DNA from: a virus
Direction: 5' to 3' (one strand)
Virus record (IMG/VR): IMGVR_UViG_3300012936_000006
Span: 1 to 64,000 of that record
DNA: 64,000 bases
The notes beneath the pieces were generated by a model. The model had not been told where the DNA came from, did no database searches, and saw nothing but the letters and a program-made list of their open reading frames with translations. Both the position numbers and the translations under genes were made by a program. Numbering within the stretch: the stretch's first letter is position 1; each line of letters starts with the position of its first letter. Of this stretch, positions 1 to 64,000 are shown piece by piece.

Positions 1-834
1 CTTGAGTCTACTCTTGCTGATCCTTTTGGTAACGGCGACAGCGACGGCGACGGTATGAACATTCCAGAGATCGACATTAAGGTCGATTCGACTGCGATTA
101 CCGCAACCACTCGCAAGATGAAGGCGAAGTGGAGCCCTGAGCTTGGTCAGGACTTGAATGCTTATCACAACCTTGATGCAGAGGTTGAGCTTACTCAGGT
201 TCTTTCAGAGCAGATTGCTCTTGAAATCGACCAAGAGATCTTAAAGGATCTTATCACTCAGGCAAAGGCTGATACTCGTTATTGGTCGAGAGTTCCCGGT
301 CGTTTCCTTAACGCATCTACGGGTGCAGCTTTAGGTGACGCTGGCGGCGACTTCACCGGTACTGTATCTGAGTGGTATGAGACACTTATTGAGACAATCA
401 ATGATGTTTCTGCTCAGATTCACCGTAAGACGCTCCGTGGCGGTGCTAACTTCTTGGTCTGTGGACCAGAGGTTGCAAACATCCTTGAGTTCACCAGTGG
501 CTTCCGAGCTTCGGTAACTCACGATGACGATAGAGGTTCTGTCGGTGCGGTAAGAGAGGGTTCAATCAATAAGAAGTTTGACCTTTATGTTGATCCTTAC
601 TTCCCACGTCAGATTATTCTTGTCGGTCGTAAGGGTAGTTCATTCTTGGAGAGCGGTTTTGTTTACGCACCATATGTGCCACTTCAGACCACTCCTACCA
701 TTTTTGGACCAGAGGACTTCACCCCACGTAAGGGTGTTATGACTCGCTACGGCAAGAAGATGGTAAGACCAGATATGTACGGTCTTGTCGTTTGTCGTGA
801 CCTTGTGGACTCAACAGTACCACCAGCCGGATAA
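1..834 (+). CDS. gp23: Major capsid protein, T4 gp23-like (5'-truncated by window edge)
   Basis: Frame is open from base 1. Motifs RKMKAKWSPELGQDLNAYHNLDAEVEL, EIDQEI, YAPYVPL and GVMTRYG are typical of gp23. Confidence 0.95.
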   Translation, partial: LESTLADPFGNGDSDGDGMNIPEIDIKVDSTAITATTRKMKAKWSPELGQDLNAYHNLDAEVELTQVLSEQIALEIDQEILKDLITQAKADTRYWSRVPGRFLNASTGAALGDAGGDFTGTVSEWYETLIETINDVSAQIHRKTLRGGANFLVCGPEVANILEFTSGFRASVTHDDDRGSVGAVREGSINKKFDLYVDPYFPRQIILVGRKGSSFLESGFVYAPYVPLQTTPTIFGPEDFTPRKGVMTRYGKKMVRPDMYGLVVCRDLVDSTVPPAG

Positions 835-20571: not shown

Positions 20572-21434
20572 TAGGATTAGGCTCAGCAGGGTGCGCTATT
20601 GCCGATTGTTTTTCTCAGTATCCGCAGTACGAGATCTATAAGATTGATACGGAGATTGAAGCTGGAAAAAATAATTTTGCTATGCCTCATCAAATCTCAT
20701 CGGAGTTGTACGAGAGAGAATGCCCAGACATGACTAAGTTTTTTAAAAACTTTGACGAGAACACGAATGTTACCTTTGTTATGTCTGGTGGCGGGAAGAT
20801 TGCAGGTGCATCTTTAAGAGTTCTTGAGGCTATTAAAAACTGTAATATAAACATTCTCTATATCACGCCAGATATTTCTCTGATGGGTGGTCGAAAATAT
20901 ATTTTAAACAGGATCTCTTTTCATGTGTTGCAAGAATATGCTCGTTCGGGATTGTTTGAAAAAATATCCTTGATATATAATCCTGCAATAGAGAGCATTA
21001 TCGGTGATGTTCCGGTGAAGGGTTACTACGATAATCTTAATGAGGTGCTGGCTAGCACTGTTCACATGGTAAATGTGTTTTCAAATACAGAGCCGGTGTT
21101 CGACAACGTGGGTGAAACAGAAGAACATCATCGCATTTGTTCGTATGGAATTATTAATCCAGAAACTGGTGAAGAAAATTTACTTTTTCCTCTTGACAAC
21201 GTGAGAGAAAAGGTGTATTATATAGGCATATCAAAAAATGCATTGAGCGACGGCTCTTATTTCAAAGAGTTGAAGAGCAGCATGCGAAAGAAAGCGGAGG
21301 ATGAAGATGTAAAGATTTCATTTCAAATCAATGAAACGAAGTATGATGAAAATTATGCATATTATATTGCATACGCAGATGAAACACAAAGTGAAAAAAA
21401 CTTAAAAAACTTCTTGACAAAACCTAAAGATTAG
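20559..21434 (+). CDS. Tubulin/FtsZ-family protein (PhuZ/TubZ-like, divergent)
   Basis: N-terminal VIGLGSAGCAIAD, KIDT, signature-loop variant SGGGKIAG, ILYITPD. Confidence 0.75.
   Translation: MDAVIGLGSAGCAIADCFSQYPQYEIYKIDTEIEAGKNNFAMPHQISSELYERECPDMTKFFKNFDENTNVTFVMSGGGKIAGASLRVLEAIKNCNINILYITPDISLMGGRKYILNRISFHVLQEYARSGLFEKISLIYNPAIESIIGDVPVKGYYDNLNEVLASTVHMVNVFSNTEPVFDNVGETEEHHRICSYGIINPETGEENLLFPLDNVREKVYYIGISKNALSDGSYFKELKSSMRKKAEDEDVKISFQINETKYDENYAYYIAYADETQSEKNLKNFLTKPKD
21193..21221 (+). promoter_or_regulatory. sigma70-type promoter inside the tubulin-like CDS
   Basis: TTGACA-17 nt-TATTAT. Confidence 0.5.
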
Positions 21435-44896: not shown

Positions 44897-46471
44897 GTGA
44901 GCAAGGTTTATAATAGTCACTCATCACTGAATGAGAAAATCCTAACAGGTGTTAACACACTAGCCGACAACGTAGCGGCAACCCTTGGACCCAAGGGCAG
45001 AAACGTAATTTTAAAAACTAAAGACGGCAATCCGGTCATTACCAAGGACGGTGTGACAGTTGCAAAGTTTGTAGAGCTATCTGATCCTTTTGAAAATCTT
45101 GGAGCGCAGGTAATTAAGCAGGCTTCTCAGGTCACTAATACCAATGCTGGCGACGGCACTACCACTGCGACCGTATTGGCAAGGGAGATCGTTACACAGG
45201 CACAAAAATATATTGCTGCTGGCTCATCCCCGGTAGAGATTAAGAGAGGTATGGATGAGGCAACAGAGGTTGTCATCGATACACTAGCTGAAATGGCAAC
45301 ACCCATTAGGAGCGAGGCAGAGGTGGCTAATGTGGCTACCATTTCAGCTAATGGCGACGAGAAGATTGGAAAGTTAATTGCAATGGCTATCGATCAGGCA
45401 GGAAAAGATGGAGGGATCTCCATCGAGTCTGGTAAGTCCATGCACACTACTCTAGATTTGGTAGAGGGTTTTCGATTTGACTCTGGATACATTTCATCCT
45501 CCTTTGTGACAGACCAGCGACTAGCAAAGATGAGATACAGCGATCCTTATATCTTGGTTGCTGACACAAATATTTCTGCCGTAGAGCAGTTGCTGCCCAC
45601 ACTAGAGCAGGTAGCCAGAGAGGGCAAACCACTGGTTATCGTAGCTGAGAACGTGGAGGGACAGGCACTAGCGGCACTAATCATGAACACTGTCCGTGGA
45701 AACATGAAGGTTGCAGCGGTCAAGGCTCCGATGTATGGAGAAGAGCGAAGAAATATTCTCCGTGACTTGGCACTCAGCACAGGCGCAACTTTCGTATCAA
45801 GAGAGACCGGCTTAGCACTTGAAGATGTGAAGCTAGAACACTTGGGTATTGCAAAAACTATTGAAAGCACACGAGGCTCCACAGTTGTTATTGATGGTGC
45901 TGGCACTGCGAGCGAGGTTGATGAGAAGATTGAACTTCTAAAGGCAGAAGTCCAGACAATTAAAGATCTTCATGAGGCAGAGAAGATTCAAGAAAGAATT
46001 ACGAGGCTCGCAAGTGGTGTCGCCATCATTCGAGTAGGCGGTACAACTGAGGTAGAGATGATCGAAACAAAGCACAGAATTGAAGATGCCTTATCCGCAG
46101 TTAAGTCTGCACAGGAGCAAGGCGTTGTAGCTGGTGGAGGTGTCGCACTACTGAGGGCATCTGTCGCACTTGCAGACTGCCAGTGTTCAAATCCTGATAG
46201 GCAAGCTGGAATTGAAATTATTAAACAGGCTCTTTGTGGTCCGATCAAACAGATGTGTTTGAACTCAGGAGAATCACCAGATCTTGTTATCGCTAGCGTC
46301 TGCGAGGCTGATACTGATGTGGGTTTTAATTTTGCAACAGGTCAGTTAGAGAATCTAATAAGCTCGGGAGTAATCGATCCAGCTAAGGTTACAAAAAATG
46401 CATTGCAAAATGCTGTTTCTGCTGCTGGAACTCTGTTGACGACAAATCATGCAATTGTGGAAGTGGATTAA
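44897..46471 (+). CDS. groEL: Chaperonin GroEL
   Basis: TLGPKGRNV, ITKDGVTVA, AGDGTTTATVLA, GFRFDSGYIS, GVVAGGGVALL, VIDPAKV; no GGM tail. Confidence 0.97.
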   Translation: MSKVYNSHSSLNEKILTGVNTLADNVAATLGPKGRNVILKTKDGNPVITKDGVTVAKFVELSDPFENLGAQVIKQASQVTNTNAGDGTTTATVLAREIVTQAQKYIAAGSSPVEIKRGMDEATEVVIDTLAEMATPIRSEAEVANVATISANGDEKIGKLIAMAIDQAGKDGGISIESGKSMHTTLDLVEGFRFDSGYISSSFVTDQRLAKMRYSDPYILVADTNISAVEQLLPTLEQVAREGKPLVIVAENVEGQALAALIMNTVRGNMKVAAVKAPMYGEERRNILRDLALSTGATFVSRETGLALEDVKLEHLGIAKTIESTRGSTVVIDGAGTASEVDEKIELLKAEVQTIKDLHEAEKIQERITRLASGVAIIRVGGTTEVEMIETKHRIEDALSAVKSAQEQGVVAGGGVALLRASVALADCQCSNPDRQAGIEIIKQALCGPIKQMCLNSGESPDLVIASVCEADTDVGFNFATGQLENLISSGVIDPAKVTKNALQNAVSAAGTLLTTNHAIVEVD

Positions 46472-53870: not shown

Positions 53871-53899
53871 TTGACAAACGAGTCAATATTAGTTATATT
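53871..53899 (+). promoter_or_regulatory. sigma70-type promoter
   Basis: A-tract, then TTGACA-17 nt-TATATT. Confidence 0.85.
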
Positions 53900-53921: not shown

Positions 53922-54584
53922 ATGAAAGAAGAACTAGAAACGTGGAGAAAGTTTTTGAAAGAAAACGAGGGCGCAACGGGAATGCAAAAATATAAGTTGT
54001 TCTGTGATATGGACGGCGTGCTAGTAGACTTCGAAAAGGGAGTCCTTGGCTATATGAACCAACGCATGGAGGCTTTAGCCGGTGGTGGCGAGCCTGTGAG
54101 CAGAGAAGAATTGAAAGACGCTGCTTTGGCTGTAGAAGCCATGGGCGGTTGGTTCGAGGTCAAGCCAGAGCACATCAAGCGACCCAGCGAAGGCGGTGTT
54201 GCTGAGGTTCGAGACCTGATGTACACGATGGTCGAAAACAACTATGAGGTGTGGGCAAACTTGCCTTGGATTCCGGGTGGCAAAGAGCTTTGGAATCACA
54301 TCAAGCAATACAACCCTGAGATCTTGACGGCTCCGATGGGACCAGAGAGTGAGCGGGGGAAAGAAACGTGGTGTGCTCGTGAGTTAGGTTCGGATATTCC
54401 TGTTAACATCACGGACAATAAGACTCCGTGGGGTCAGGGAGATGGCAAGCGACAAGGTTTGTTAATCGACGACCGTGAGAAGTACCGTGCTCAGTTTAAA
54501 AAGGGCGGCGGTGAAGTAGTGCCTCATACGCCGGGTGATGCCGGTCCTTCGATTGAGCGATTAAAAACGCTCGGCTTTCAATAG
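53922..54584 (+). CDS. HAD-family 5'(3')-nucleotidase with shared leader peptide
   Basis: Leader MKEELETWRKFLKE; CDMDGVLVDF, ILTAP, GKETW, LIDDR. Confidence 0.9.
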   Translation: MKEELETWRKFLKENEGATGMQKYKLFCDMDGVLVDFEKGVLGYMNQRMEALAGGGEPVSREELKDAALAVEAMGGWFEVKPEHIKRPSEGGVAEVRDLMYTMVENNYEVWANLPWIPGGKELWNHIKQYNPEILTAPMGPESERGKETWCARELGSDIPVNITDNKTPWGQGDGKRQGLLIDDREKYRAQFKKGGGEVVPHTPGDAGPSIERLKTLGFQ

Positions 54585-54616
54585 TCGCCTCTACTTATTA
54601 TAAGGAGGGTTGAATA

Positions 54617-54685
54617 ATGAGTGAATCAAACAAGTGTAAGTGTTGTCCGTGTTGCAAGTGCGATTGCGAAAATTGCTGCGAATAA
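54617..54685 (+). CDS. 22-aa Cys-rich metallothionein-like micropeptide (not in ORF track)
   Basis: TAAGGAGG SD at 54601; MSESNKCKCCPCCKCDCENCCE; late-like CTACTTAT at 54591. Confidence 0.7.
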   Translation: MSESNKCKCCPCCKCDCENCCE

Positions 54686-54744
54686 ATTACTAAAAAGTTT
54701 CGTTTTCGCTCATTATGCCCTAATTATATTATAAAGAGGGTTGA

Positions 54745-55161
54745 TTGGTGAAATTAGAAAATAATTTTAGTTTGTCGGAATTTAGATGTAGAGATGGTTC
54801 AGATGTTCCAGAAGAACTGATGGACAACGTGCGTCTTTTGGCTGAAAACCTACAGGTCTTGAGAGACTATATTGGAAGACCCGTTAAAATAATTTCCGGG
54901 TATAGATCGCCAGATTATAATAAAAAGATCGGCGGTGCAAAGCGCAGTCAGCACATGCTTGCAAAAGCGGCTGATATTAAGATTGAAGGCATGGAGCCTT
55001 GGATGGTTCATAAGATAATCGAGCATCTTATCTATGAAGGGCATATGATGAAAGGAGGTCTCGGGATATACGAGACATTTGTACATTATGATGTGCGAGG
55101 TAGAAACGCCAGATGGAAAGGCAAAGGTGTGAAGGATGATAGACCAGCGACAAAATATTAG
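54745..55161 (+). CDS. Peptidase M15A (YcbK/DUF882-like Zn D-Ala-D-Ala peptidase)
   Basis: NFSLSEFRC, ISGYRS..YN, SQHMLAKAADI, FVHYDVRG. Confidence 0.92.
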   Translation: MVKLENNFSLSEFRCRDGSDVPEELMDNVRLLAENLQVLRDYIGRPVKIISGYRSPDYNKKIGGAKRSQHMLAKAADIKIEGMEPWMVHKIIEHLIYEGHMMKGGLGIYETFVHYDVRGRNARWKGKGVKDDRPATKY

Positions 55162-55163
55162 TT

Positions 55164-55481
55164 ATGATAGACTTGACAGACTCAGCAGCAAATAAAATAA
55201 AAGAAGTATTAAAAGATACTGAAAATACCGGAGTTCGTGCCGCCATTCAAGGCGGCGGGTGCTCCGGTTTTACTTATAAACTAACAATGGAAAAAGAGCC
55301 AGATCCTGATGACAAGGTTATCGAGATTAAGGGTGTGAAGTTGTTCGTAGATAAGAAGAGCTACTTATTCCTCATCGGAACCACTATAGATTTCGTCACC
55401 GAGATGATGCAAATGGGTTTTAAATTTATTAATCCGAATGCTAAAAGAACTTGCGGTTGTGGCGAAAGTTTTGGGATTTAA
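55164..55481 (+). CDS. iscA: A-type Fe-S cluster carrier (HesB/IscA)
   Basis: GGGCSGFTY and NPNAKRTCGCGESF. Confidence 0.95.
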   Translation: MIDLTDSAANKIKEVLKDTENTGVRAAIQGGGCSGFTYKLTMEKEPDPDDKVIEIKGVKLFVDKKSYLFLIGTTIDFVTEMMQMGFKFINPNAKRTCGCGESFGI

Positions 55482-55493
55482 ACGCTTAAACAG

Positions 55494-55502
55494 ACTATTT
55501 AT
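55494..55502 (+). promoter_or_regulatory. Putative late promoter heading the leader-peptide gene array
   Basis: Exact ACTATTTAT. Confidence 0.7.
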
Positions 55503-55529
55503 TAAAGATGCCGAAGAGAGGATATTTTT

Positions 55530-55775
55530 ATGCAGAATTTGTTTGAAAATTGGAGAAAGTTTCTCGAAGAAATTGAAGCAGAAGAACTGCAAGAAAAGTC
55601 TAAATCAAAGAATCAGCAAAAATTTATGGGCATGGTCAAGAAGTGTCAAGAAACTGGCGATTGTGCCTCAGATGAGGTAGAGAAAACAGCCGACAGTATG
55701 GAGAAATCTGATGTAGACGACTTTGCCAAAACAAAACACAAAGGATTACCAGATAAAGTAGAGGATAAAAAATGA
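55530..55775 (+). CDS. Small leader-tagged protein (DUF3008-like)
   Basis: Leader MQNLFENWRKFLEE; KSKNQQKFMG..FAKTKHKGLPDKV. Confidence 0.8.
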   Translation: MQNLFENWRKFLEEIEAEELQEKSKSKNQQKFMGMVKKCQETGDCASDEVEKTADSMEKSDVDDFAKTKHKGLPDKVEDKK

Positions 55776-57637
55776 AACTATTAATGGAAAACTGGCGAAA
55801 CTTTCTCGCAGAAGAAGAAAAGAATTGTGGTTGTGGTCAAGATCCTTGCATCACTTACGGAGTACAGAACGAAGCCAAAGAAGATGAAGGATATGAGCCC
55901 CACATGATGTACAATCCTAAAACTGGCGAAAAGAAAAAAGCCAAGACTAAAGAAGAGCATGAATCACTGGGTGCATCAGGTTGGCAGCACGTCAACCCTG
56001 ATGAGATCCGCAAAGCTTTAGAGGATGAGGGCGGTGCTGCTGACACCGATGCTATCGTAGACAGAACAGATGCAAGTGGCAAAGAAGTAAAAAAAGCTAT
56101 GAAAGACATGCCTGACGTTGCTCAACATGATAAAGGTGACTACATTCTTGGCGATAAAGATAAGATAAAAATTGAAGAAGATTGCTGGGATGGTTACGAG
56201 AGAGTTCCGGGCTCTAAAGAGGGAGAGCCGGGATCTTGTCGAAAGAAAACAAATGAAGGTGCTGGTCACGCCGAATCCATTCTTCAAGCACAAAACCAAG
56301 GCGTTGCTTTTATTCGTGGTCAAGACGATAAAGCAGCAGGTAAGGAAAAGGATCCTAACTATTCTGAAGAAAGTGGACGTAATCCTTTAGAAGTTCTTTT
56401 TTATAATGCTGGTTATGACAAAGGGATGGATGAAAATTTTTCGTCGAAGACTGAAGCCTCTTTTGGTGATAAAAGCGCAACAACATTTACGACCCAGCAG
56501 ATGAATGACGAAGAAGAAACTGCTGCCGAAATAGAAAGTGCTATTGTCTCGCTTGCAAAAGAAAAAGGTATGAGTGCTGAAGAGCTAAAAGCAGCGATTC
56601 TGGGAAATATAAAAAATAAGAAAGGCATTTCCGTTGAGCAAGCAGCAATTGATGAAGCAGAAATCTGCAAAGCAGGAAAAGATTGGGTCGATGGCAAGGA
56701 GATCGGAGGACAAGTTGTTAAACGAGGCGAAGACGGCAAGTTTAATAATTGGTCTGCTCGTGCAGCACAGATTGCTTCCAACTATTGCAAAAATCCTAAC
56801 TACGGTAGAGGGAAGAAGAAAAAGAAGAACGAATCGATGAGTGAGGGCGATCTTGGCGATTGGGAAAAAGAAAACTGGACACACTCAGACGGCACACCCT
56901 GCGGCGGTGGCGACAAGGACGGTTCACAGAGCCGATGCAAGCCAGCTTCCAAGTGGAAAGGCATGAGCAAGGGTGAGAAAGCAGCCGACAATGCAAAGAA
57001 AAAAGCTGGCACAGATGCAGGCAAGCAATATGTTTCAGCTACCAAGAAAGGAAAGGTTACTAAAGCTCACACAAAAGAAGCCCAAGTTGCCGATATTTTA
57101 GCAAGAGTGTTTGAGGGGTGTGGTGAACCTGCTCCTGTAAATTATGATCACGGTCCAGAGGCATCAATGCATAGAAGCTCCCTTCACACAATTAAGGGCG
57201 AAGTCGAACAGCTTCTATATATGATTGGTGAACAAGATGATTTACCTGAATGGCTAGAAGCAAAGATTACGAAAGCAAAAGCATATTTGTCTGCTGCAAA
57301 AGATTACTTGTCAGGTGAACAGGCTGAGATGGCAGGCGCACTTGAAGAGCAGCTTGCAGATGCGATTGTGGTAGAGTATCTTGAAGAAGATAATATGGAC
57401 GAAGGCGGCAGATGCACAAAGGCAACTGAGAAAACTACCTCTACTCGCAAGGGCAAGAAGTACATGAAGTGTATCAAGAATCCAGACGGTGAAGGTTATA
57501 TTAGAAAACACTGGGGTCAGAAAGGTGCTAGAGCAGCACCAAAGGGATCTAAAAGAAACAAGAGCTTTAACAAGCGACATAAGTGCTCAACCGCAAAAGC
57601 GGGTACAGCAAGAAAATTAGCATGTGATGATTGGTAG
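55772..57637 (+). CDS. Leader-tagged multi-module protein (candidate polyprotein)
   Basis: Leader MKLLMENWRNFLAE; short Cys/Lys-rich modules separated by xxE sites. Confidence 0.85.
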   Translation: MKLLMENWRNFLAEEEKNCGCGQDPCITYGVQNEAKEDEGYEPHMMYNPKTGEKKKAKTKEEHESLGASGWQHVNPDEIRKALEDEGGAADTDAIVDRTDASGKEVKKAMKDMPDVAQHDKGDYILGDKDKIKIEEDCWDGYERVPGSKEGEPGSCRKKTNEGAGHAESILQAQNQGVAFIRGQDDKAAGKEKDPNYSEESGRNPLEVLFYNAGYDKGMDENFSSKTEASFGDKSATTFTTQQMNDEEETAAEIESAIVSLAKEKGMSAEELKAAILGNIKNKKGISVEQAAIDEAEICKAGKDWVDGKEIGGQVVKRGEDGKFNNWSARAAQIASNYCKNPNYGRGKKKKKNESMSEGDLGDWEKENWTHSDGTPCGGGDKDGSQSRCKPASKWKGMSKGEKAADNAKKKAGTDAGKQYVSATKKGKVTKAHTKEAQVADILARVFEGCGEPAPVNYDHGPEASMHRSSLHTIKGEVEQLLYMIGEQDDLPEWLEAKITKAKAYLSAAKDYLSGEQAEMAGALEEQLADAIVVEYLEEDNMDEGGRCTKATEKTTSTRKGKKYMKCIKNPDGEGYIRKHWGQKGARAAPKGSKRNKSFNKRHKCSTAKAGTARKLACDDW

Positions 57638-57649
57638 GAGGAGCCAAAA

Positions 57650-57811
57650 ATGAAAAGTTTATTAACATTATTAACAATTATTATGCTTGCGCTTGCAGGC
57701 TGCGGAGATGATTGCACATCTGCACCAGACACTGGTGTTGATGCGGGTGGCACTGATGCAGCTATCGATGCAGGCGGTGATGCAGGCGACGTTGGCGGCG
57801 ATAGTCAATGA
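57650..57811 (+). CDS. 53-aa lipoprotein with DAG repeats (not in ORF track)
   Basis: AGGAGG SD; MKSLLTLLTIIMLALAG-C lipobox; GDD..DTGVDAGGTDAAIDAGGDAG; stop overlaps the next ATG. Confidence 0.85.
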   Translation: MKSLLTLLTIIMLALAGCGDDCTSAPDTGVDAGGTDAAIDAGGDAGDVGGDSQ

Positions 57812-58179
57812 TCAACTGGCTGAGATCACGCAGACCGTGGATGATTGAGAATTCAAAGATTCCAGTCTTTTTGTCTCACTTTGCGCCAATTAATATTTGG
57901 GCAATATCGTTTGGTCCGTTTGTTTGGTGTCGTGGCGTTATGTCGGAGACAACCAAGAGACACGAAATTATCCACTATCACCAGCAACTAGAACTAGCTT
58001 TCATAGGCCAATGGACCTTATACCTCATTTTTTACCTACGTGGTCTGATTAGAGGCGGTGCTGGTTCTGGCGAAGAAGCTTATAGGGCTAATGCATTCGA
58101 AGTGGAGGCATACACGCATGAGGCAGAAATTGATTACTTAGAGAAGAGACCACTTTATAATTGGAGAAATTACTTATGA
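57808..58179 (+). CDS. HExxH zincin-like small protein
   Basis: RHEIIHYHQ...AYRANAFEVEAY. Confidence 0.8.
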   Translation: MINWLRSRRPWMIENSKIPVFLSHFAPINIWAISFGPFVWCRGVMSETTKRHEIIHYHQQLELAFIGQWTLYLIFYLRGLIRGGAGSGEEAYRANAFEVEAYTHEAEIDYLEKRPLYNWRNYL

Positions 58180-58421
58180 GATTAAAATCTAGAGCACGAC
58201 AGATTATCATTGAAGAGATCTTGAGGGAGAATGACGAAAGGGCAGCATCGGGTGCCGAGTCATTAGGTAGTTCATTGGGTGGACGCCCAGATGTAGCTAT
58301 GGCTATCGAAGCAGTTCTTAAAGAAAAGGGTCTTCCAAAATCCGCAGCAGCATTGATGAAGGCGTATAAGTCTGCACAAGCTGAAATGGATATGGAATAT
58401 TCTTTACATTACCCGGAATAG
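58176..58421 (+). CDS. Hypothetical protein with RQIIIEEILRE-type leader
   Basis: ATGA-coupled start at 58176. Confidence 0.7.
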   Translation: MRLKSRARQIIIEEILRENDERAASGAESLGSSLGGRPDVAMAIEAVLKEKGLPKSAAALMKAYKSAQAEMDMEYSLHYPE

Positions 58422-58429
58422 GTGATATA

Positions 58430-58624
58430 TTGTTTGAAGGTGCAAAAAAACATTTGGAAGAGAGAGGTGAGACATACTTTGAGCATATGCAAGCAGCGGC
58501 AAGTTTAGCTTTGATGTTAGCTGTTGTTAGTTTGAAGTGTGTTGTTCACTCGGTGTTTCCAAATTATTATAAAACTTGTGTATCAGATAAATTATCAGAT
58601 ATTCAAAAAATGGTAAAGAGGTAA
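58430..58624 (+). CDS. Small hypothetical protein (DUF6356-like)
   Basis: HLEERGETYFEHM...VHSVFP motif. Confidence 0.7.
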   Translation: MFEGAKKHLEERGETYFEHMQAAASLALMLAVVSLKCVVHSVFPNYYKTCVSDKLSDIQKMVKR

Positions 58625-58629
58625 TTTCG

Positions 58630-59445
58630 ATGAAACAATTAATGGAAAGCTGGCGAAACTTTATGAAAGAGCAGAGCCAGATCGAAGAAACTGGTGCCGG
58701 TGGTTATCAATACGAAGAGTATGTCATTAATGCACTGAAGACGGCAGGAGCCGTTGGTAATATTACCTCCGGTGCGGGGGCTTCAGCAGCAGCGGCTGAC
58801 GCTGACATTAGAGTAAATGGCAAGGTTTATAATATTGAAGTAAAGATGGACGGCAAAGCCCAGATGGGCGGCACATCTCTCAGGTACTTTCCGCAGGGTG
58901 TGCCATCTGATGACCCTTCAGCACCCGAGGGTAAACTACAGAAGTTTGTCATTGTCTCAAACTCTGTTGAGCCTGACACTGTTACAATGATGGAAGAGGC
59001 TCTGACACCCCTAGAGCAAGATTTAAATAACTTCTTAGAGGCGATTGGTGCAACTAAGATGCCTGCAACGGTCGAGAAAGATCTTTGGGCGGCAGCGGTA
59101 GCAGAGGGTTTGCTTAGACCACTCAACGTAAAACTAAAAAGAACAACCAAGTTTATTATTAACCACTACGCTAAAAAAGGTGTAGACTATATACAGATCG
59201 GCGGGGCAGGGCTATTTTATTTAGCGAACAATCCAGCAAACTTGCCGGTTCCTCAGCTTGACGGAGAGATCAATATTGAGCTTAGACCCGGAAGAAGTGG
59301 GAGTAAGAAAAGAAAAGACGGCACTGTGGTTGTCGGCGGCTTGATTCGTGTACAGGGTCGATTGCAGTTTAGGGGTCAGTCACCTTACACACTTGACGAT
59401 CCTCAAAGCATTGCAGAGATGCTAAAAGAGGCAAACTCGGCATGA
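58630..59445 (+). CDS. Leader-tagged PD-(D/E)xK endonuclease-like protein
   Basis: Leader MKQLMESWRNFMKE; GYQYEEYV...ADADIRVNGKVYNIEVKM. Confidence 0.75.
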   Translation: MKQLMESWRNFMKEQSQIEETGAGGYQYEEYVINALKTAGAVGNITSGAGASAAAADADIRVNGKVYNIEVKMDGKAQMGGTSLRYFPQGVPSDDPSAPEGKLQKFVIVSNSVEPDTVTMMEEALTPLEQDLNNFLEAIGATKMPATVEKDLWAAAVAEGLLRPLNVKLKRTTKFIINHYAKKGVDYIQIGGAGLFYLANNPANLPVPQLDGEINIELRPGRSGSKKRKDGTVVVGGLIRVQGRLQFRGQSPYTLDDPQSIAEMLKEANSA

Positions 59446-59711
59446 AACAGTTAATGGAAAATTGGCGACGATATAAGCGCATGTCCGAGGTATCTTATGA
59501 TGGAAACATTGGGTTCGAAGAGACTGTAAGGTTTTATCAATCTGCACCCAAAGAAAAAATAGCTGAGTTTGAGGCTATGCTGGACAGTGGAGATGAAAAG
59601 AGTGCTATGGGTATTATCCTTGATTTTCTTGGCACTTCACTGCAAGGTGACCAATTCCCGCAGATGAAAGCTGTTGCTGAAGCCATAGAAGTGGAGAGGG
59701 ACCAAGAATGA
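59442..59711 (+). CDS. Leader-tagged small hypothetical protein
   Basis: Leader MKQLMENWRRYKRMSE; ATGA overlap with the upstream gene. Confidence 0.8.
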   Translation: MKQLMENWRRYKRMSEVSYDGNIGFEETVRFYQSAPKEKIAEFEAMLDSGDEKSAMGIILDFLGTSLQGDQFPQMKAVAEAIEVERDQE

Positions 59712-60391
59712 AACAATTAATGGAAAATTGGCGCAAGTTTCTAAACGAGGGAATAGACTCCCGCATTCAGAAACAGATTGATATGGTGATTCAGCTTCCC
59801 GACGTAGGCATTACCATCTCTCGGGGTGGTTTCGGCAGGAGTATTAGATATGTTCTCATCGAAGACGCTGAAACTCAGCAATACTCCGAACTAACTTATA
59901 ATGATGCACTCGGTGACAAGAAAGATTATCCTCACGGAGAAGTTGATATTATGAAAACGTCTGAAGATTCCGAAGGACCATGTTTGGATGGCTGGACCGT
60001 CACGGCTGCTGAAGCTAGAAAGGGGTGGGGTCCACTTCTTTATGAGGTGGCGATTGAATATGCTTCACAGAATGGTGGAGGTCTCACGCCAGACAGGTTC
60101 TCAGTATCACGACACGCAATGGCTGTGTGGGACAAGTATGCCACCCGAGATGGTGTTGATGCTCAGCAGATGGACACCAATCATGACCCCAGCGCAATGG
60201 GCGCAAGGGTGAATACAACAGTTCCGCAGTTGACGCCCGATGACAAGTCAGATGACTGTGATCAGTCGAGAGCTATTTCTAAAGACGGAGAAAACTGGCA
60301 CAAGAACTCAACGACGAAAATGTATAAGAAAGACAATCCAGAAGTAATGCAGGCACTTAAATCTGCGGGGAGGCTAATTATAGCGGTATGA
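59708..60391 (+). CDS. Leader-tagged GNAT acetyltransferase-like protein
   Basis: Leader MKQLMENWRKFLNE; ARKGWGPLLYEVAIE (acetyl-CoA motif A), SRHAMAVWDKY. Confidence 0.75.
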   Translation: MKQLMENWRKFLNEGIDSRIQKQIDMVIQLPDVGITISRGGFGRSIRYVLIEDAETQQYSELTYNDALGDKKDYPHGEVDIMKTSEDSEGPCLDGWTVTAAEARKGWGPLLYEVAIEYASQNGGGLTPDRFSVSRHAMAVWDKYATRDGVDAQQMDTNHDPSAMGARVNTTVPQLTPDDKSDDCDQSRAISKDGENWHKNSTTKMYKKDNPEVMQALKSAGRLIIAV

Positions 60392-60951
60392 AAGAATTAA
60401 TGGAAAATTGGCGAGGCTACATTAATGAGCAAGAAAGAATTGCTTTAGAAGAGGGCGTCTTTCAAGATGCCATGACTTGGTTGAAGGACAAGGGACGGCA
60501 AGCTCAGGAGAAAGCAAAAAAGTTTCTTGAAAGTTTAAGAGAAGAGCTTGCTGAGACTAAAGTTGGTATTATGCTCTTGCAGAAGATTGCCGCAGGAAAA
60601 GAACTAAGTGATGACGAATCTCAATTCTTAAAAGATCAGGCAAAAGATATAGCTAGTGGCACTGCGCTGCTTGGGCTCTTTGCTCTGCCCGGTGGTGGTA
60701 TCGCATCGGCAGCGTTGCTAAAGATGGCTCGAAAGTTTGGGGTTGAGCTTATGCCAAGTTCTTTTCTTGACGAGCCAGAGCTAGCAGAACGTGACTGGCA
60801 AAAAGAATCTGAAAAGCTAAAAGATCATCCGAACAAGAAAGCTAGGATTTTAGACACAGGTGCCAATAAGGAAACTGGCGGCGGCACTGGGCATCGGAAG
60901 CTCGATAAACGCCGAGGTAAAAGCGCACCACCCGGAGCAGGCGGGGTATAA
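60388..60951 (+). CDS. Leader-tagged LETM1-like membrane domain protein
   Basis: Leader MKELMENWRGYINE; KDQAKDI..LFALPGGGI..LMPSSF. Confidence 0.65.
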   Translation: MKELMENWRGYINEQERIALEEGVFQDAMTWLKDKGRQAQEKAKKFLESLREELAETKVGIMLLQKIAAGKELSDDESQFLKDQAKDIASGTALLGLFALPGGGIASAALLKMARKFGVELMPSSFLDEPELAERDWQKESEKLKDHPNKKARILDTGANKETGGGTGHRKLDKRRGKSAPPGAGGV

Positions 60952-60968
60952 AATTATAAATAAACAGC

Positions 60969-60997
60969 TTAACAATCGAAAGAAACCTACTTATAAT
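60969..60997 (+). promoter_or_regulatory. Overlapping sigma70-like promoter and late-like motif
   Basis: TTAACA-17 nt-TATAAT, with CTACTTAT at 60987-60994. Confidence 0.55.
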
Positions 60998-61015
60998 ATA
61001 GGGGGGTCTGTATAA

Positions 61016-61234
61016 ATGGCGATTGACAAGCTTTACTTTCACGGCTCGTGTCTTGCATGCAGAGGAACTAGTAAAACTTGGTATAATCGTCCTTGTCCGT
61101 ATTGTTATCGAGGCACAGCTTATCACGAGGCATCGGACAAGCTAGTCCAGAAATATGTTCTTGAAGAAATGGATGAAAACGCCCAAAAAGAACTATTTAA
61201 TGAGATGAAAGAGAAATACGAAAAGGAAAGTTAA
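61016..61234 (+). CDS. Small zinc-finger protein (DnaJ-type CxxCxG repeats)
   Basis: CLACRGT...CPYCYRGT. Confidence 0.75.
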   Translation: MAIDKLYFHGSCLACRGTSKTWYNRPCPYCYRGTAYHEASDKLVQKYVLEEMDENAQKELFNEMKEKYEKES

Positions 61235-61417
61235 ATGTGTTTAATTTGTGTTGAATATAACTTGAAGAGACTAACAATCAATGAAGCCTACAGAAACTTA
61301 CAAGAGATGAAAGAGATTCTCCCAGAAGAACACGTAGAAGAAATTGAAAAGATGTTAGAACACGACACTCTTCAGGAGATTCATGAGCTTGAAGGAGATG
61401 ATAATAATGAGCTTTAA
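61235..61417 (+). CDS. Small hypothetical protein (MCLIC start)
   Basis: Abutting ORF with AAGGA SD. Confidence 0.7.
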   Translation: MCLICVEYNLKRLTINEAYRNLQEMKEILPEEHVEEIEKMLEHDTLQEIHELEGDDNNEL

Positions 61418-62033
61418 AGATTTGTGGAAAAACTACATTCGAACCGGTGAATCGCAAGCTAGCATTCAGCCTACATCTTGGAAAAGTTTTTTGATCGAAG
61501 AGTTAGAGACAGTTCACAGCCCAGAAGAACAGCAACAGCCAGCGGCACTACAGCCGTCAGAAATTCCAGCGGAACTGTTTCATGCAACTCGACCACCGTT
61601 GCTGTCTGCGATAGCCGAACAAGGCTTGCGTGATTATTCTGATTTTTCCCGGCATGGAGCTGGTCAGATAGGCGTCTCGTTTGCTACCGAATTGACACCG
61701 CTTGAGGATGGCAGCTTTGGTAATCTAGTGCTTGTATTTGACGGAAAAGAGCTAGCTGCATCAAACCAATATATTTTTAAAAATCATCAAGATCCCACCA
61801 TTGATACTAAAGAAGCAGAAGTTCGTGTTACCATGTCAGACTCAGCCGGTGATTCTGGCTCAGGTATTGATTCAAAGGTTGATGCGCTCGGAACATCTAT
61901 CCCTTTTCACTTTTGCAAGAAAATGATTTTTCTCTATCCCGTGCCAAAGTTCGAATTAAAGTGGTTAAAAGAAAACTACCCATCGGTAGAAATTCAGGTA
62001 TTAAAACAAGAAAAAGAAGAAAATAAAGAATAA
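61407..62033 (+). CDS. ADP-ribosyltransferase-fold protein (Tpt1/DarT-like) with degenerate leader
   Basis: LFHAT..L.AI.EQGL, GVSFAT, KEAEVRV, IP; N-terminal DLWKNYI and SWKSFLIEE. Confidence 0.65.
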   Translation: MSFKDLWKNYIRTGESQASIQPTSWKSFLIEELETVHSPEEQQQPAALQPSEIPAELFHATRPPLLSAIAEQGLRDYSDFSRHGAGQIGVSFATELTPLEDGSFGNLVLVFDGKELAASNQYIFKNHQDPTIDTKEAEVRVTMSDSAGDSGSGIDSKVDALGTSIPFHFCKKMIFLYPVPKFELKWLKENYPSVEIQVLKQEKEENKE

Positions 62034-62101: not shown

Positions 62102-64000
62102 GTGAAGAAACTAGGAATGATGCTCCTAGCGAGCACGGCTTTTATATTATCTTGTTCGTGTCAAGACAGAATTAAGCTAATACAGGCTTGTTCGCACCAC
62201 TCCGAAAAAAACTCACCTTGCGTTGGTTCCGAAGAATCCTTTTCACTTTTAAACCCAGAAAATAAAAACACTGGTGAATGCTCTATTGGCAGAATTACGT
62301 GCAGGCAACACGAGTACACCATGGAAGAGTATTGTGGTGACGATGAGGGCTGTAAAGCAGAGTGGGAAACAACCAGAACTGATGATATATGTGTTGGTCA
62401 TGTTGGTCCAAAGGGTGAATTATGCGATGGTCTCGACAATGACTGCGATGGCGAGATTGATGAAAATTATGATGTGGACGGCGATGGCTTCAAAAGTGCG
62501 GCGGCATTGAAACCAGACGGTCAGCTTTGCGGCTATGACTGTGATGACTTTAACCCAGCAGTCCACCCAAGTTCAACTGAGATTTGCGATGGAATCGACA
62601 ATGATTGTGACTGTAGGGTGCTAGATTCTTCGTTGCAAGATTCTAATGGAGATGGCGTTTTTTGTGGCTGTGGACCTGCTGGGTGTGATGATGGCGTTGA
62701 TGAAGGCTTGGTTGGAAACACAATTGGCATATGCTATCCCGAAGGTGTTACCGAGCAAGAATGGAGCACCCTCTCTGTTGAGAATAGCCCATGTTCTATT
62801 GGAAAGCTTCGGTGTGAGTCTGGCGAGATTTTATGTGTTGGAGCGCAAGGACCAAAAGAAGAGGTATGCGACGGTGTAGATAATAATTGCAATGGTGCAG
62901 CCGATGAGAACGAATTAGTTGTCGGTGCTGGCGATGCTTGCGGGTCTGATGTTGGGGTATGCCAAGAGGGTCATTTAATTTGCGACCCAGTGACAAAAGA
63001 TATGATTTGTGTTGGTCAGGTCACAGGACAAAGCCCCGATTTCTGCGACGGTCTCGATAATGATTGTGACGGACAATCTGATGAAGATGCTGGCTCTGTG
63101 CTCTGTTCTAATGGATGCCCACAAACGGGGTATCAATATTGTGTTGAGGGGGAATATAGCACTTGTGATGCACCGCTTCCCGAATCTGAGGATGACGATC
63201 CCTGCAACGGAGAGGACGACGATTGTGACGGTCAGGTAGATGAGGGTCAAGAGTGTCAGTGTGATGCCGATGAAGTCGGTCCATTTGCTCCTGACTGCAC
63301 AGTAGATGAAATGGTTGCTTCTGGCTTGTCTTGCGGAAAAGGAAAGAAAGATTGTATTTGTGAAAATGGAGACTGTCAGTATGGAGAGTGCTATTTGACT
63401 TGCGACCCATGGGTAGACGGAGCACCGAATCCAAATGTCTTTTGGGGTCCATGCGACCCGGAAACTTGTGACGATTGGGATCACAATTGCTGGGCTGGAC
63501 CAGCAGATGTAGAACCGCAACCTTGTCCATGTGATCCAACACACCCTGATCCATCTATTGCTCTCTTATCACTTGAGGGCAACGGCTGTGAAGCGGGAGA
63601 GTGTACAGCAGGCAGTCGCTCTTGCGTGCTAGATCCCCAAACAAACACTCATGGCTGGCACCCTGCCGACTGTGATGCGATAGGTCCAGTTGAAGAAGTT
63701 TGTGACGAGCTAGATAATGACTGTGATACATTAGTTGATGAAGAGTTGAACAGTTTTGAGAGAGTCGATATGGTTTTTGCTATCGACATAACGGGTTCAA
63801 TGGATTCTGTTATTGAAGATGTTCACAACGCCATCAACGCTTATGCTCAGGACTTTCAGCAAACAGAGCACCAGTTTGCGTTAATCTTATTCCCGGCTCC
63901 TTATTGTGATCCAAACAACCCGACAACTAATCCGGGCTGTGATTGGGCATCGGCTGGCTCGCCTGCTACTATGTGTGGCGATGGAAGTAATGAAGGGGAT
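62102..64000 (+). CDS. Cys/Asp-rich lipoprotein with CDGxDNDCDG (MopE-related) repeats and a vWA domain; 3'-truncated, absent from ORF track
   Basis: GTG start, signal MKKLGMMLLASTAFILS-C; about 7 repeats such as ELCDGLDNDCDGEIDE; in-frame DMVFAIDITGSM MIDAS motif near 63770; no stop seen before the window end. Confidence 0.85.
   Translation, partial: MKKLGMMLLASTAFILSCSCQDRIKLIQACSHHSEKNSPCVGSEESFSLLNPENKNTGECSIGRITCRQHEYTMEEYCGDDEGCKAEWETTRTDDICVGHVGPKGELCDGLDNDCDGEIDENYDVDGDGFKSAAALKPDGQLCGYDCDDFNPAVHPSSTEICDGIDNDCDCRVLDSSLQDSNGDGVFCGCGPAGCDDGVDEGLVGNTIGICYPEGVTEQEWSTLSVENSPCSIGKLRCESGEILCVGAQGPKEEVCDGVDNNCNGAADENELVVGAGDACGSDVGVCQEGHLICDPVTKDMICVGQVTGQSPDFCDGLDNDCDGQSDEDAGSVLCSNGCPQTGYQYCVEGEYSTCDAPLPESEDDDPCNGEDDDCDGQVDEGQECQCDADEVGPFAPDCTVDEMVASGLSCGKGKKDCICENGDCQYGECYLTCDPWVDGAPNPNVFWGPCDPETCDDWDHNCWAGPADVEPQPCPCDPTHPDPSIALLSLEGNGCEAGECTAGSRSCVLDPQTNTHGWHPADCDAIGPVEEVCDELDNDCDTLVDEELNSFERVDMVFAIDITGSMDSVIEDVHNAINAYAQDFQQTEHQFALILFPAPYCDPNNPTTNPGCDWASAGSPATMCGDGSNEGD

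Follow-up and report, generated by a model that had tools for sequence, protein, structure and literature searches.

A common leader on unrelated genes

The stretch of DNA analysed here, called the window throughout, comprises the first 64,000 nucleotides of a 76,766-bp viral contig (IMG/VR record IMGVR_UViG_3300012936_000006) with a CheckV completeness of 42%. The + strand holds every gene of the window. Between positions 53922 and 60951, seven open reading frames (ORFs) open with a leader of 14 residues, M-K-x-L-M-E-N-W-R-x-[FY]-[LIM]-x-E, which we refer to as the tag; the protein portions that follow it are referred to as cargo (Table 1). An earlier reading of this DNA from its letters (the original prediction) had described seven ORFs with a common leader, several of them chained by ATGA overlaps, and all seven leaders and starts were found as claimed. 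Four of the overlaps are real, at 55772, 59442, 59708 and 60388.

A hidden Markov model (HMM) built from six leaders was run over all six frames of the contig, a scan that the original prediction had proposed. High scores were obtained only for the known tagged ORFs and for two genes beyond the window. One of these, the ORF at contig 70589, has a second, internal leader copy, QDLMEGWRQRLNE, near residue 120, where its match to PHROG_30877 begins; either two tagged genes have been fused here, or the protein is destined to be cut twice. A reading of it as a T3-type S-adenosylmethionine lyase found no confirmation; its matches were limited to PHROG_30877, of unknown function, and to a weak ‘methyltransferase’ family. 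The two degenerate leader copies that had been reported in one further ORF are also present, as FKDLWKNYIRTGE (DLWKNYIRTGE) and TSWKSFLIEE, with the ORF itself given here as 61383 in place of 61407. Its homologue in the complete related genome G005 has the canonical leader MKLIIENWRKFLTE, and we therefore count ORF 61383 as an eighth, decayed member of the window. In total, the contig holds nine canonical leaders and one degenerate leader.

Table 1. Tagged genes and associated features, in window coordinates unless marked as contig
Feature	Position	Strand	Leader or motif	Remarks
3' part of T4-type major capsid protein gene (gp23)	1..834	+		PF07068 Gp23, E 1.1e-62 at window 46-780
Sigma-70-like promoter	53871..53899	+	TTGACA-17-TATATT	11/12 match; upstream of gene 53922
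Tagged gene 1, HAD-type 5'(3')-deoxyribonucleotidase-like	53922..54584	+	MKEELETWRKFLKE	PHROG_2643, E 2.3e-16
Putative late-type promoter element	55495..55502	+	CTATTTAT	35 nt upstream of 55530, start of main tagged block
Tagged gene 2, DUF3008-like small domain	55530..55775	+	MQNLFENWRKFLEE	PHROG_30268, E 1.3e-19
Tagged gene 3, 607-aa Lys- and Cys-rich multi-part protein	55772..57637	+	MKLLMENWRNFLAE	
Untagged small HExxH membrane protein, hydrophobic segments	57808..58179	+		PHROG_15610 ‘protease’, E 1.5e-17; no Pfam family
Tagged gene 4, predicted PD-(D/E)xK nuclease, HhaI-like fold	58630..59445	+	MKQLMESWRNFMKE	
Tagged gene 5, 73 aa after leader	59442..59711	+	MKQLMENWRRYKRMSE	
Tagged gene 6, putative GNAT-like domain	59708..60391	+	MKQLMENWRKFLNE	Commonest tagged family
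Tagged gene 7, 173 aa after leader	60388..60951	+	MKELMENWRGYINE	Basic C-terminal tail
Gene with degenerate leaders, ADP-ribosyltransferase-like lead	61383..62033	+		Atlas leads DarT/PARP 0.90, Arr 0.87
Tagged gene beyond window	contig 70332		MKKLFEEFRSFVAE	Leader HMM
Tagged gene beyond window	contig 70589-71554 (L118:6589-7554)		MKELLTEWRKFLKE	Leader HMM

The original prediction had further held that the peptide is conserved while its codons vary synonymously, and the fetched loci of relatives bear this out. Among 121 distinct leader contexts, Arg at R9 and Leu at L12 each use all six of their codons, and the conserved Asn is encoded by AAT in 56 cases and AAC in 50. As the amino acids stay fixed while synonymous codons vary, selection acts on the peptide and not on the DNA.

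Modularity of the cargo

When the leader was removed from 80 tagged proteins, the remaining sequences fell into 36 BLAST cargo clusters; judged by this clustering, the tag precedes at least 30 unrelated cargo families. Modularity is also evident within the nuclease family of gene 58630, which has both tagged and untagged members. Among the 120 homologues listed for this family, only the closest ~8-12 are tagged, and untagged homologues, such as PSSM2_192 of cyanophage P-SSM2, begin directly with the domain. In the family of gene 59708, the leader or a close variant of it (MKKLMTEWREFLKE, MKQLMENWRRYVSLNE) is found in nearly all of the 120 homologues listed.

When window 59708-60951 is compared with L048:1473-2336, from a 73%-identical relative, the GNAT-like protein is seen there as a single ORF of 287 aa. 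The basic C-terminal tail of this protein is, in the phage studied here, the C-terminus of the separate tagged gene 60388. This arrangement points to the insertion of a cassette headed by a leader into an ancestral gene.

Some homologues of the 58630 nuclease of ~335 aa (P0057, P0058, P0104, P0112, P0114 and P0120) have another N-terminal extension with the motif MK..SLKE...EMF..E, and some of these longer homologues lie on contigs of 160-340 kb. The extension may be the tag of another clade on nuclease cargo.

Distribution of the tag

The strict pattern MENWRxFLxE, back-translated into a DNA pattern, matches 77 IMG/VR viral stretches, for a chance expectation of ~1 by our own arithmetic from a guessed size of the collection. 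In nearly all 77, the motif starts 2-10 codons past the start codon, behind short lead-ins such as MKLI-, MKLL-, MNQKLI- or MSYS..KL-. The same pattern has eight matches in 596 Gb of bacterial and archaeal genomes; of the seven that are readable, six are internal or lie in spurious short frames, and one is N-terminal, on a 1.5-kb contig. The question raised by the original prediction, whether the motif occurs mainly in non-phage proteins, is thus answered by 77 viral stretches against a single N-terminal prokaryote match. The tag is virus-specific, N-terminal and widespread. We found no paper that describes a MENWR tag.

Genome type and association with the T4-type head module

The contig derives from an uncultured marine T4-like phage. 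It encodes a contractile tail sheath, tail tube, baseplate hub, UvsX-like recombinase and DnaB-like helicase, together with ribonucleotide reductase, family-B DNA polymerase, GroEL and an M15 endolysin. The gp23 fragment with which it begins is 79% identical to its counterpart, the capsid protein, in G003, a complete relative of 191 kb, and the contig is collinear with positions 138-188 kb of that genome, at 44-62% amino-acid identity for most compared genes. Directly upstream of the collinear part, G003 has the genes for TerL, portal, prohead protease, a scaffold-like protein and the capsid protein, in this order. Because the contig begins within gp23 and is collinear with G003, its head module is expected just beyond the contig 5' end. 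Judged by the portal protein, which is 42% identical, Flavobacterium phage immuto and Microcystis phage Mel-JY01 are the closest phages in culture. The GroEL gene, at window 44897-46471, is kept in all five complete relatives examined (G001-G005). A large ORF that runs from window 62102 to 64000 and beyond is lipoprotein-like and has many CDG.DNDCDG repeats rich in Cys and, after them, a vWA-like segment.

Complete genomes that carry the tag also carry a T4-type head. A Peptidase_S77 (gp21-type) prohead protease is present in all six complete tag-bearing genomes, and a Gp23 capsid protein in all five that were tested for it; an example of the clade's protease gene is L092:1949-2557. In each of these five, 4-10 genes of the coding strand are tagged, most of them arranged in tandem as in the window. 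When the ORFs of the 77 stretches were clustered, the families that most often neighbour tagged genes were those of the portal and TerL, the protease, a small membrane protein and two conserved proteins encoded downstream of the portal. In 22 of these stretches, no more than ~1.5 kb separates the protease gene from a tagged gene. The tagged GNAT-like family is placed between portal and protease in 32 stretches, within a conserved order of portal, two or three small proteins, the tagged GNAT-like protein, the small membrane protein and the protease. In G003 and G001, tagged genes directly follow the protease, which in G003 lies ~12 kb upstream of gp23. In T4, the equivalent position is occupied by prohead core genes: gp67, gp68, then gp21 and gp22.

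The tagged genes directly downstream of the G003 prohead protease (G003 122564-124455; L092:2564-4455) encode two paralogous proteins that begin MSYSSDKKHKL[MI]FE[SN]WR.. and contain a DGHHRW motif, which we take to be ParB/sulfiredoxin-like; no Pfam family was found for them. We considered this pair as gp22 scaffold and dropped the assignment, given the DGHHRW motif and because another, scaffold-like ORF stands immediately upstream of the capsid gene.

Different small proteins between portal and protease of relatives share another N-terminal motif, MKL[NT]KE.LKQIIKEEL.., which ends in I-x-E-E (L016:3524-4536, L027:842-1369, L033:3680-3901; G003 120773 and 121590, L092:773-1946). It may represent a second class of targeting or processing leader, for core proteins. 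The motif is not found on the contig studied here, which is without the head module.

The end of the leader resembles a prohead protease site

The cleavage consensus of T4 gp21 is (L/I)-x-E. We collected leaders by an unbiased criterion, an N-proximal [ED]xW[RK] only, and all ~40 true leaders obtained in this way have [FY] at W+3, [LIVM] at W+4 and Glu at W+6; ~11 chance matches to [ED]xW[RK] are without this combination. The [LIVM]-x-E end of the leader matches the cleavage of gp21-type proteases, which cut C-terminal to Glu after a short motif (PMC5694885, PMC9026906). In the relatives, the capsid proteins themselves start with T4-like propeptides. Several [LI]-x-E sites occur in these, and the final one, LRE at ~residue 60, stands just ahead of the conserved mature N-terminus.

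The capsid-targeting sequence (CTS) of T4 internal proteins was reportedly described by Mullaney and Black in 1996 as being removed by gp21. Anchored on the Glu, the leader residues W8-R-K-F11-L12-N-E14 align with Y4-Q-E-F7-I8-A-E10 of T4 IPIII. The match between the T4 CTS, MKTYQEFIAE, and the tag consists of the pattern [YW]-x-x-F-[IL]-x-E and the M-K start only, and is too short for a statistical test of homology. According to amber-suppression work in T4, residues 4 and 7 are the main determinants of targeting, and residues 8 and 10 those of processing (PMC9026906). In the leader, W8 and F11 are accordingly the predicted targeting residues. In T4 experiments, Asp at the final position reportedly prevented processing. 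Since the match falls on these functional positions, the tag resembles a T4 CTS that is longer by a single helical turn at its N-terminus. The original prediction had proposed a distinct Trp-containing targeting tag; the targeting-tag reading is favoured by our analysis, but the word distinct is not, as the tag follows an N-terminally extended T4 CTS pattern.

Expression signals

The 8-mer CTATTTAT, which the original prediction had placed ahead of the main tagged block at 55494, is real and lies one position further on. There are 12 copies on the + strand and a single one on the - strand, for a shuffle mean of 1.6, and copies stand 21-85 nt upstream of the genes for the adaptor-like protein, tail sheath, tail tube and baseplate hub. 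Sites of the form CTATTTAT(A) are found at window 921, 3654, 7288, 8014, 9212, 38424 and 55495 and at contig 64479 and 65661. In G002, G004 and G005, CTA[TC]TTAT stands directly ahead of the tagged arrays. From the genes that it precedes, we regard the 8-mer as a putative late-type promoter element. The contig also has 13 near-identical sigma-70-like sites (CTTGACAA-N17-TATATTAT), for example at 21413, 24156, 47165, 51666 and 53870, upstream of other genes.

Identity of the cargo

The cargo assignments of the original prediction fared unevenly: those of a HAD nucleotidase and a PD-(D/E)xK nuclease stood, that of a GNAT protein was weakly supported, and the LETM1-like and ADP-ribosyltransferase-fold assignments are only weak leads. 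The product of gene 53922 has its nucleophile motif, DMDGV, within CDMDGVLVDF at residues 28-37, and a Pfam Hydrolase match under the cut-off; tagged homologues occur in L045, G001 and G002. The DUF3008 match of gene 55530 (Pfam, E 9.8e-5) is also under the gathering cut-off. Pfam assigned no family to the 607-aa product of gene 55772, of which L029 and G005 encode tagged homologues, and the 73-aa cargo of gene 59442 gave no family from Pfam or PHROG.

For ORF 58630, the AF2 model has a predicted local distance difference test score (pLDDT) of 90.7. Its best match, along the whole chain, is HhaI endonuclease, with a VIA Z of 10.1 and a root-mean-square deviation of 4.4 over 180 aligned residues, and with a Foldseek probability of 0.95; the next structure matches are Hjc resolvases (Z 7.5-7.6), I-Ssp6803I, MspI and HinP1I. 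The putative catalytic residues D57, D59, E70 and K72 (ADAD...IEVK) are invariant in 44 sequences of the family. By predicted fold and motif, the assignment of this cargo as a PD-(D/E)xK nuclease is well supported.

The model of ORF 59708 has a pLDDT of only 67. Its top 50 VIA matches are nearly all GNAT-fold or related acyl- and aminoacyl-transferases (Z 4.0-5.3), and Foldseek against the PDB gave no significant match. The stretch KGWGPLLYEVAIEYA, with invariant G108, L110, L111, Y112 and A115 in the family, resembles acetyl-CoA motif A (R/Q-x-x-G-x-G/A) in a non-canonical form. A GNAT-like fold of this cargo is thus weakly supported by the model. Language-model leads point weakly to a LETM1_RBD-like cargo for gene 60388 and to an ADP-ribosyltransferase-like cargo (DarT/PARP/Arr) for ORF 61383; the latter has no family in Pfam or PHROG. 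Among 20 more tagged cargos of relatives, Pfam named just two, a Zeta_toxin/AAA kinase and a cytidylyltransferase-like protein, and PHROGs added little for the relatives' cargos.

A putative capsid-targeting propeptide

The tag and its N-terminal place, its modularity and peptide conservation, its occurrence in viruses with T4-type heads only, the protease synteny and the late-type upstream motif are what we observe. The explanation that we consider probable assigns to M-K-x-[LI]-M-E-N-W-R-x-[FY]-[LIVM]-x-E the role of a T4-like capsid-targeting propeptide in an uncultured marine clade of T4-like myoviruses. The leader, as an amphipathic helix, would attach to some part of the prohead core while the head is being assembled, so that any protein fused behind it would be enclosed on closure of the gp23 shell. 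Cleavage by the prohead protease, of gp21 type, behind the invariant Glu14 that ends [LIVM]-x-E would next free the mature cargo inside the head. At infection, the PD-(D/E)xK nuclease, the GNAT-like protein, the HAD nucleotidase and other cargo would leave the head with the DNA, as happens in T4 with its internal proteins and with Alt. Core binding, cleavage, packaging, ejection and a role of the cargo in the host are steps that we infer.

We tentatively extend this proposal to the whole clade, in which the MENWR tag could mark a set of pre-made, capsid-carried and DNA-delivered proteins, 4-10 or more per genome, recruited by insertion of leader-headed cassettes. With the same reserve, the capsid-carried set might comprise a restriction-like nuclease, the acyltransferase-like protein of the head module, nucleotidases, a zeta-toxin-like kinase and ADP-ribosyltransferase-like proteins.

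Several points weigh against a capsid-targeting role. No Peptidase_S77 match is found on the contig itself, a fragment that starts inside gp23, and the presence of the protease is deduced from synteny. A search of 50,697 phage records by tblastn with two tagged proteins gave no cultured carrier, and the nearest isolates, immuto and Mel-JY01, have only chance-level matches to a loose leader pattern, though their heads are of T4 type. As these isolates have T4-type heads without the tag, it is not general to gp21 phages. The putative late-type character of the 8-mer is deduced from the genes downstream of it, and gene 53922 lies behind the sigma-70-like early promoter and not behind the late-type motif; with this near-consensus promoter upstream, gene 53922 may also be made early. 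Storage of a nuclease beside the DNA of the phage itself calls for a further assumption, for example that this DNA is modified or that cofactors are missing. Moreover, GroEL co-occurs with the tag in five of five complete genomes, and co-occurrence alone therefore cannot tell the protease from other clade-wide genes.

This last point bears on a different role for the tag, as a docking helix for a non-capsid partner such as the phage GroEL, the small HExxH membrane protein or a host factor, with the tagged proteins acting unpackaged in the infected cell. The GroEL gene in the window and in the complete tag-bearing genomes fits such a role, as does the early-type promoter on gene 53922, and the HExxH protein is a direct neighbour of tagged genes at 15 loci, which include arrays as well as head modules. 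However, the HExxH protein occurs in just two of five complete tag-bearing genomes, against six of six for the protease, and for this reason we also rejected it as an obligate leader peptidase. It is the sole recurrent enzyme-like neighbour; no dedicated modifying enzyme, of the kind found with ribosomally synthesized and post-translationally modified peptides (RiPP-like) or of the radical-SAM type, consistently stands beside tagged genes in the 77 stretches. The families commonest near tagged genes are those of the head module, a synteny that a GroEL partner leaves unexplained, and a chaperone tag would account neither for the [LIVM]-x-E end nor for the match at the functional positions of the T4 CTS. 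We know of no requirement of GroEL substrates for a specific N-terminal tag. On balance, a non-capsid partner seems unlikely.

Somewhat less likely still is a regulatory propeptide or degradation signal that keeps the enzymes inactive or short-lived until a phage or host protease removes it, with no sorting into the head. Several cargos are potentially toxic to the phage (nuclease, zeta-toxin-like kinase, nucleotidase), and the models show the leader as a separate, low-confidence helix detached from the domain, both as expected of such a propeptide. Yet the same 14-mer is unlikely to inhibit more than 30 unrelated folds, each specifically; the tag is constitutive on the GNAT-like protein of the head module; and its restriction to phages with gp21/gp23 heads better suits sorting. 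The conserved 5' coding stretch might also be a cassette boundary for recombination at the DNA level, or a translation-initiation element, with a functionless peptide. The tandem tagged cassettes with their ATGA overlaps, and the L048 GNAT-like protein whose tail is the end of the next tagged gene here, like an inserted leader-headed cassette, agree with a boundary of this kind. Against it stand the free use of synonymous Arg, Leu and Asn codons under constant amino acids in the 121 contexts, and the ribosome-binding regions, which differ between the tagged genes upstream of their starts, so that we regard a DNA-level element as very improbable.

If the tentative clade-wide extension is true, the injected proteome of uncultured ocean phages would become legible from metagenomes, and a second, orthogonal packaging tag would stand beside the T4 CTS. 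Should the tag act like that CTS, head-carried, infection-delivered proteins could be listed from sequence for a widespread group of uncultured marine T4-like phages, where virion proteomics is impossible. The cargo enzymes would then act before phage gene expression, with relevance to how ocean hosts are taken over and their defences countered.

Comparison with known systems

The comparison with T4 suggests a conserved CTS core, aromatic-x-x-F-[IL]-x-E, represented by YQEFIAE in T4 and WRKFLNE here. In both systems, a short N-terminal propeptide (10-19 residues in T4) with a hydrophobic-x-Glu end is common to otherwise unrelated proteins; both have a gp23 capsid and a gp21-type protease, the latter here in the relatives, and a diverse, fast-changing and clustered cargo. 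Unlike the T4 CTS, the tag is 14 residues long, is extended at the N-terminus by a turn (MKxLMEN) and has a Trp-Arg that is invariant; outside the common pattern, no homology between the two sequences is detectable. It occurs on 4-10 genes in each relative counted and on about ten of the contig, and one tagged family is fixed within the head module. Many of its cargos are enzyme-like (nuclease, GNAT-like, nucleotidase, zeta-like kinase, nucleotidyltransferase), whereas those of T4 are small basic proteins. Packaging and cleavage have been shown by experiment in T4, whereas the present system is known from sequence alone.

Encapsulin cargo-loading peptides offer a more distant parallel, in that a short terminal peptide loads unrelated enzymes into a shell of the HK97-type fold. 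In contrast to the tag, these peptides are usually C-terminal and uncleaved, and they serve a cellular nanocompartment and not a virion; the phage studied here has no encapsulin.

In T4, the CTS of IPI, IPII, IPIII and Alt is removed by the prohead protease gp21 (PMC9026906, PMC3012670, PMC5694885), and T-even phages have a conserved CTS on diverse internal proteins (PMC3012670, PMC9026906). The principle is therefore not new, and the tag extends a known system. The propeptides of inner-body and ejection proteins in the giant phages phiKZ, 201phi2-1 and SPN3US are likewise cut C-terminal to Glu by a gp21-related protease; they are thought to target the prohead, and paralogues such as SPN3US gp53 and gp54 have common N-termini (PMC5694885, PMC10052503). 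They differ from the tag in being mostly longer than 100 residues, with no single tag on unrelated folds, and in their cleavage motifs, A-x-E or S-x-E as against [LIVM]-x-E here (PMC5694885, PMC10052503).

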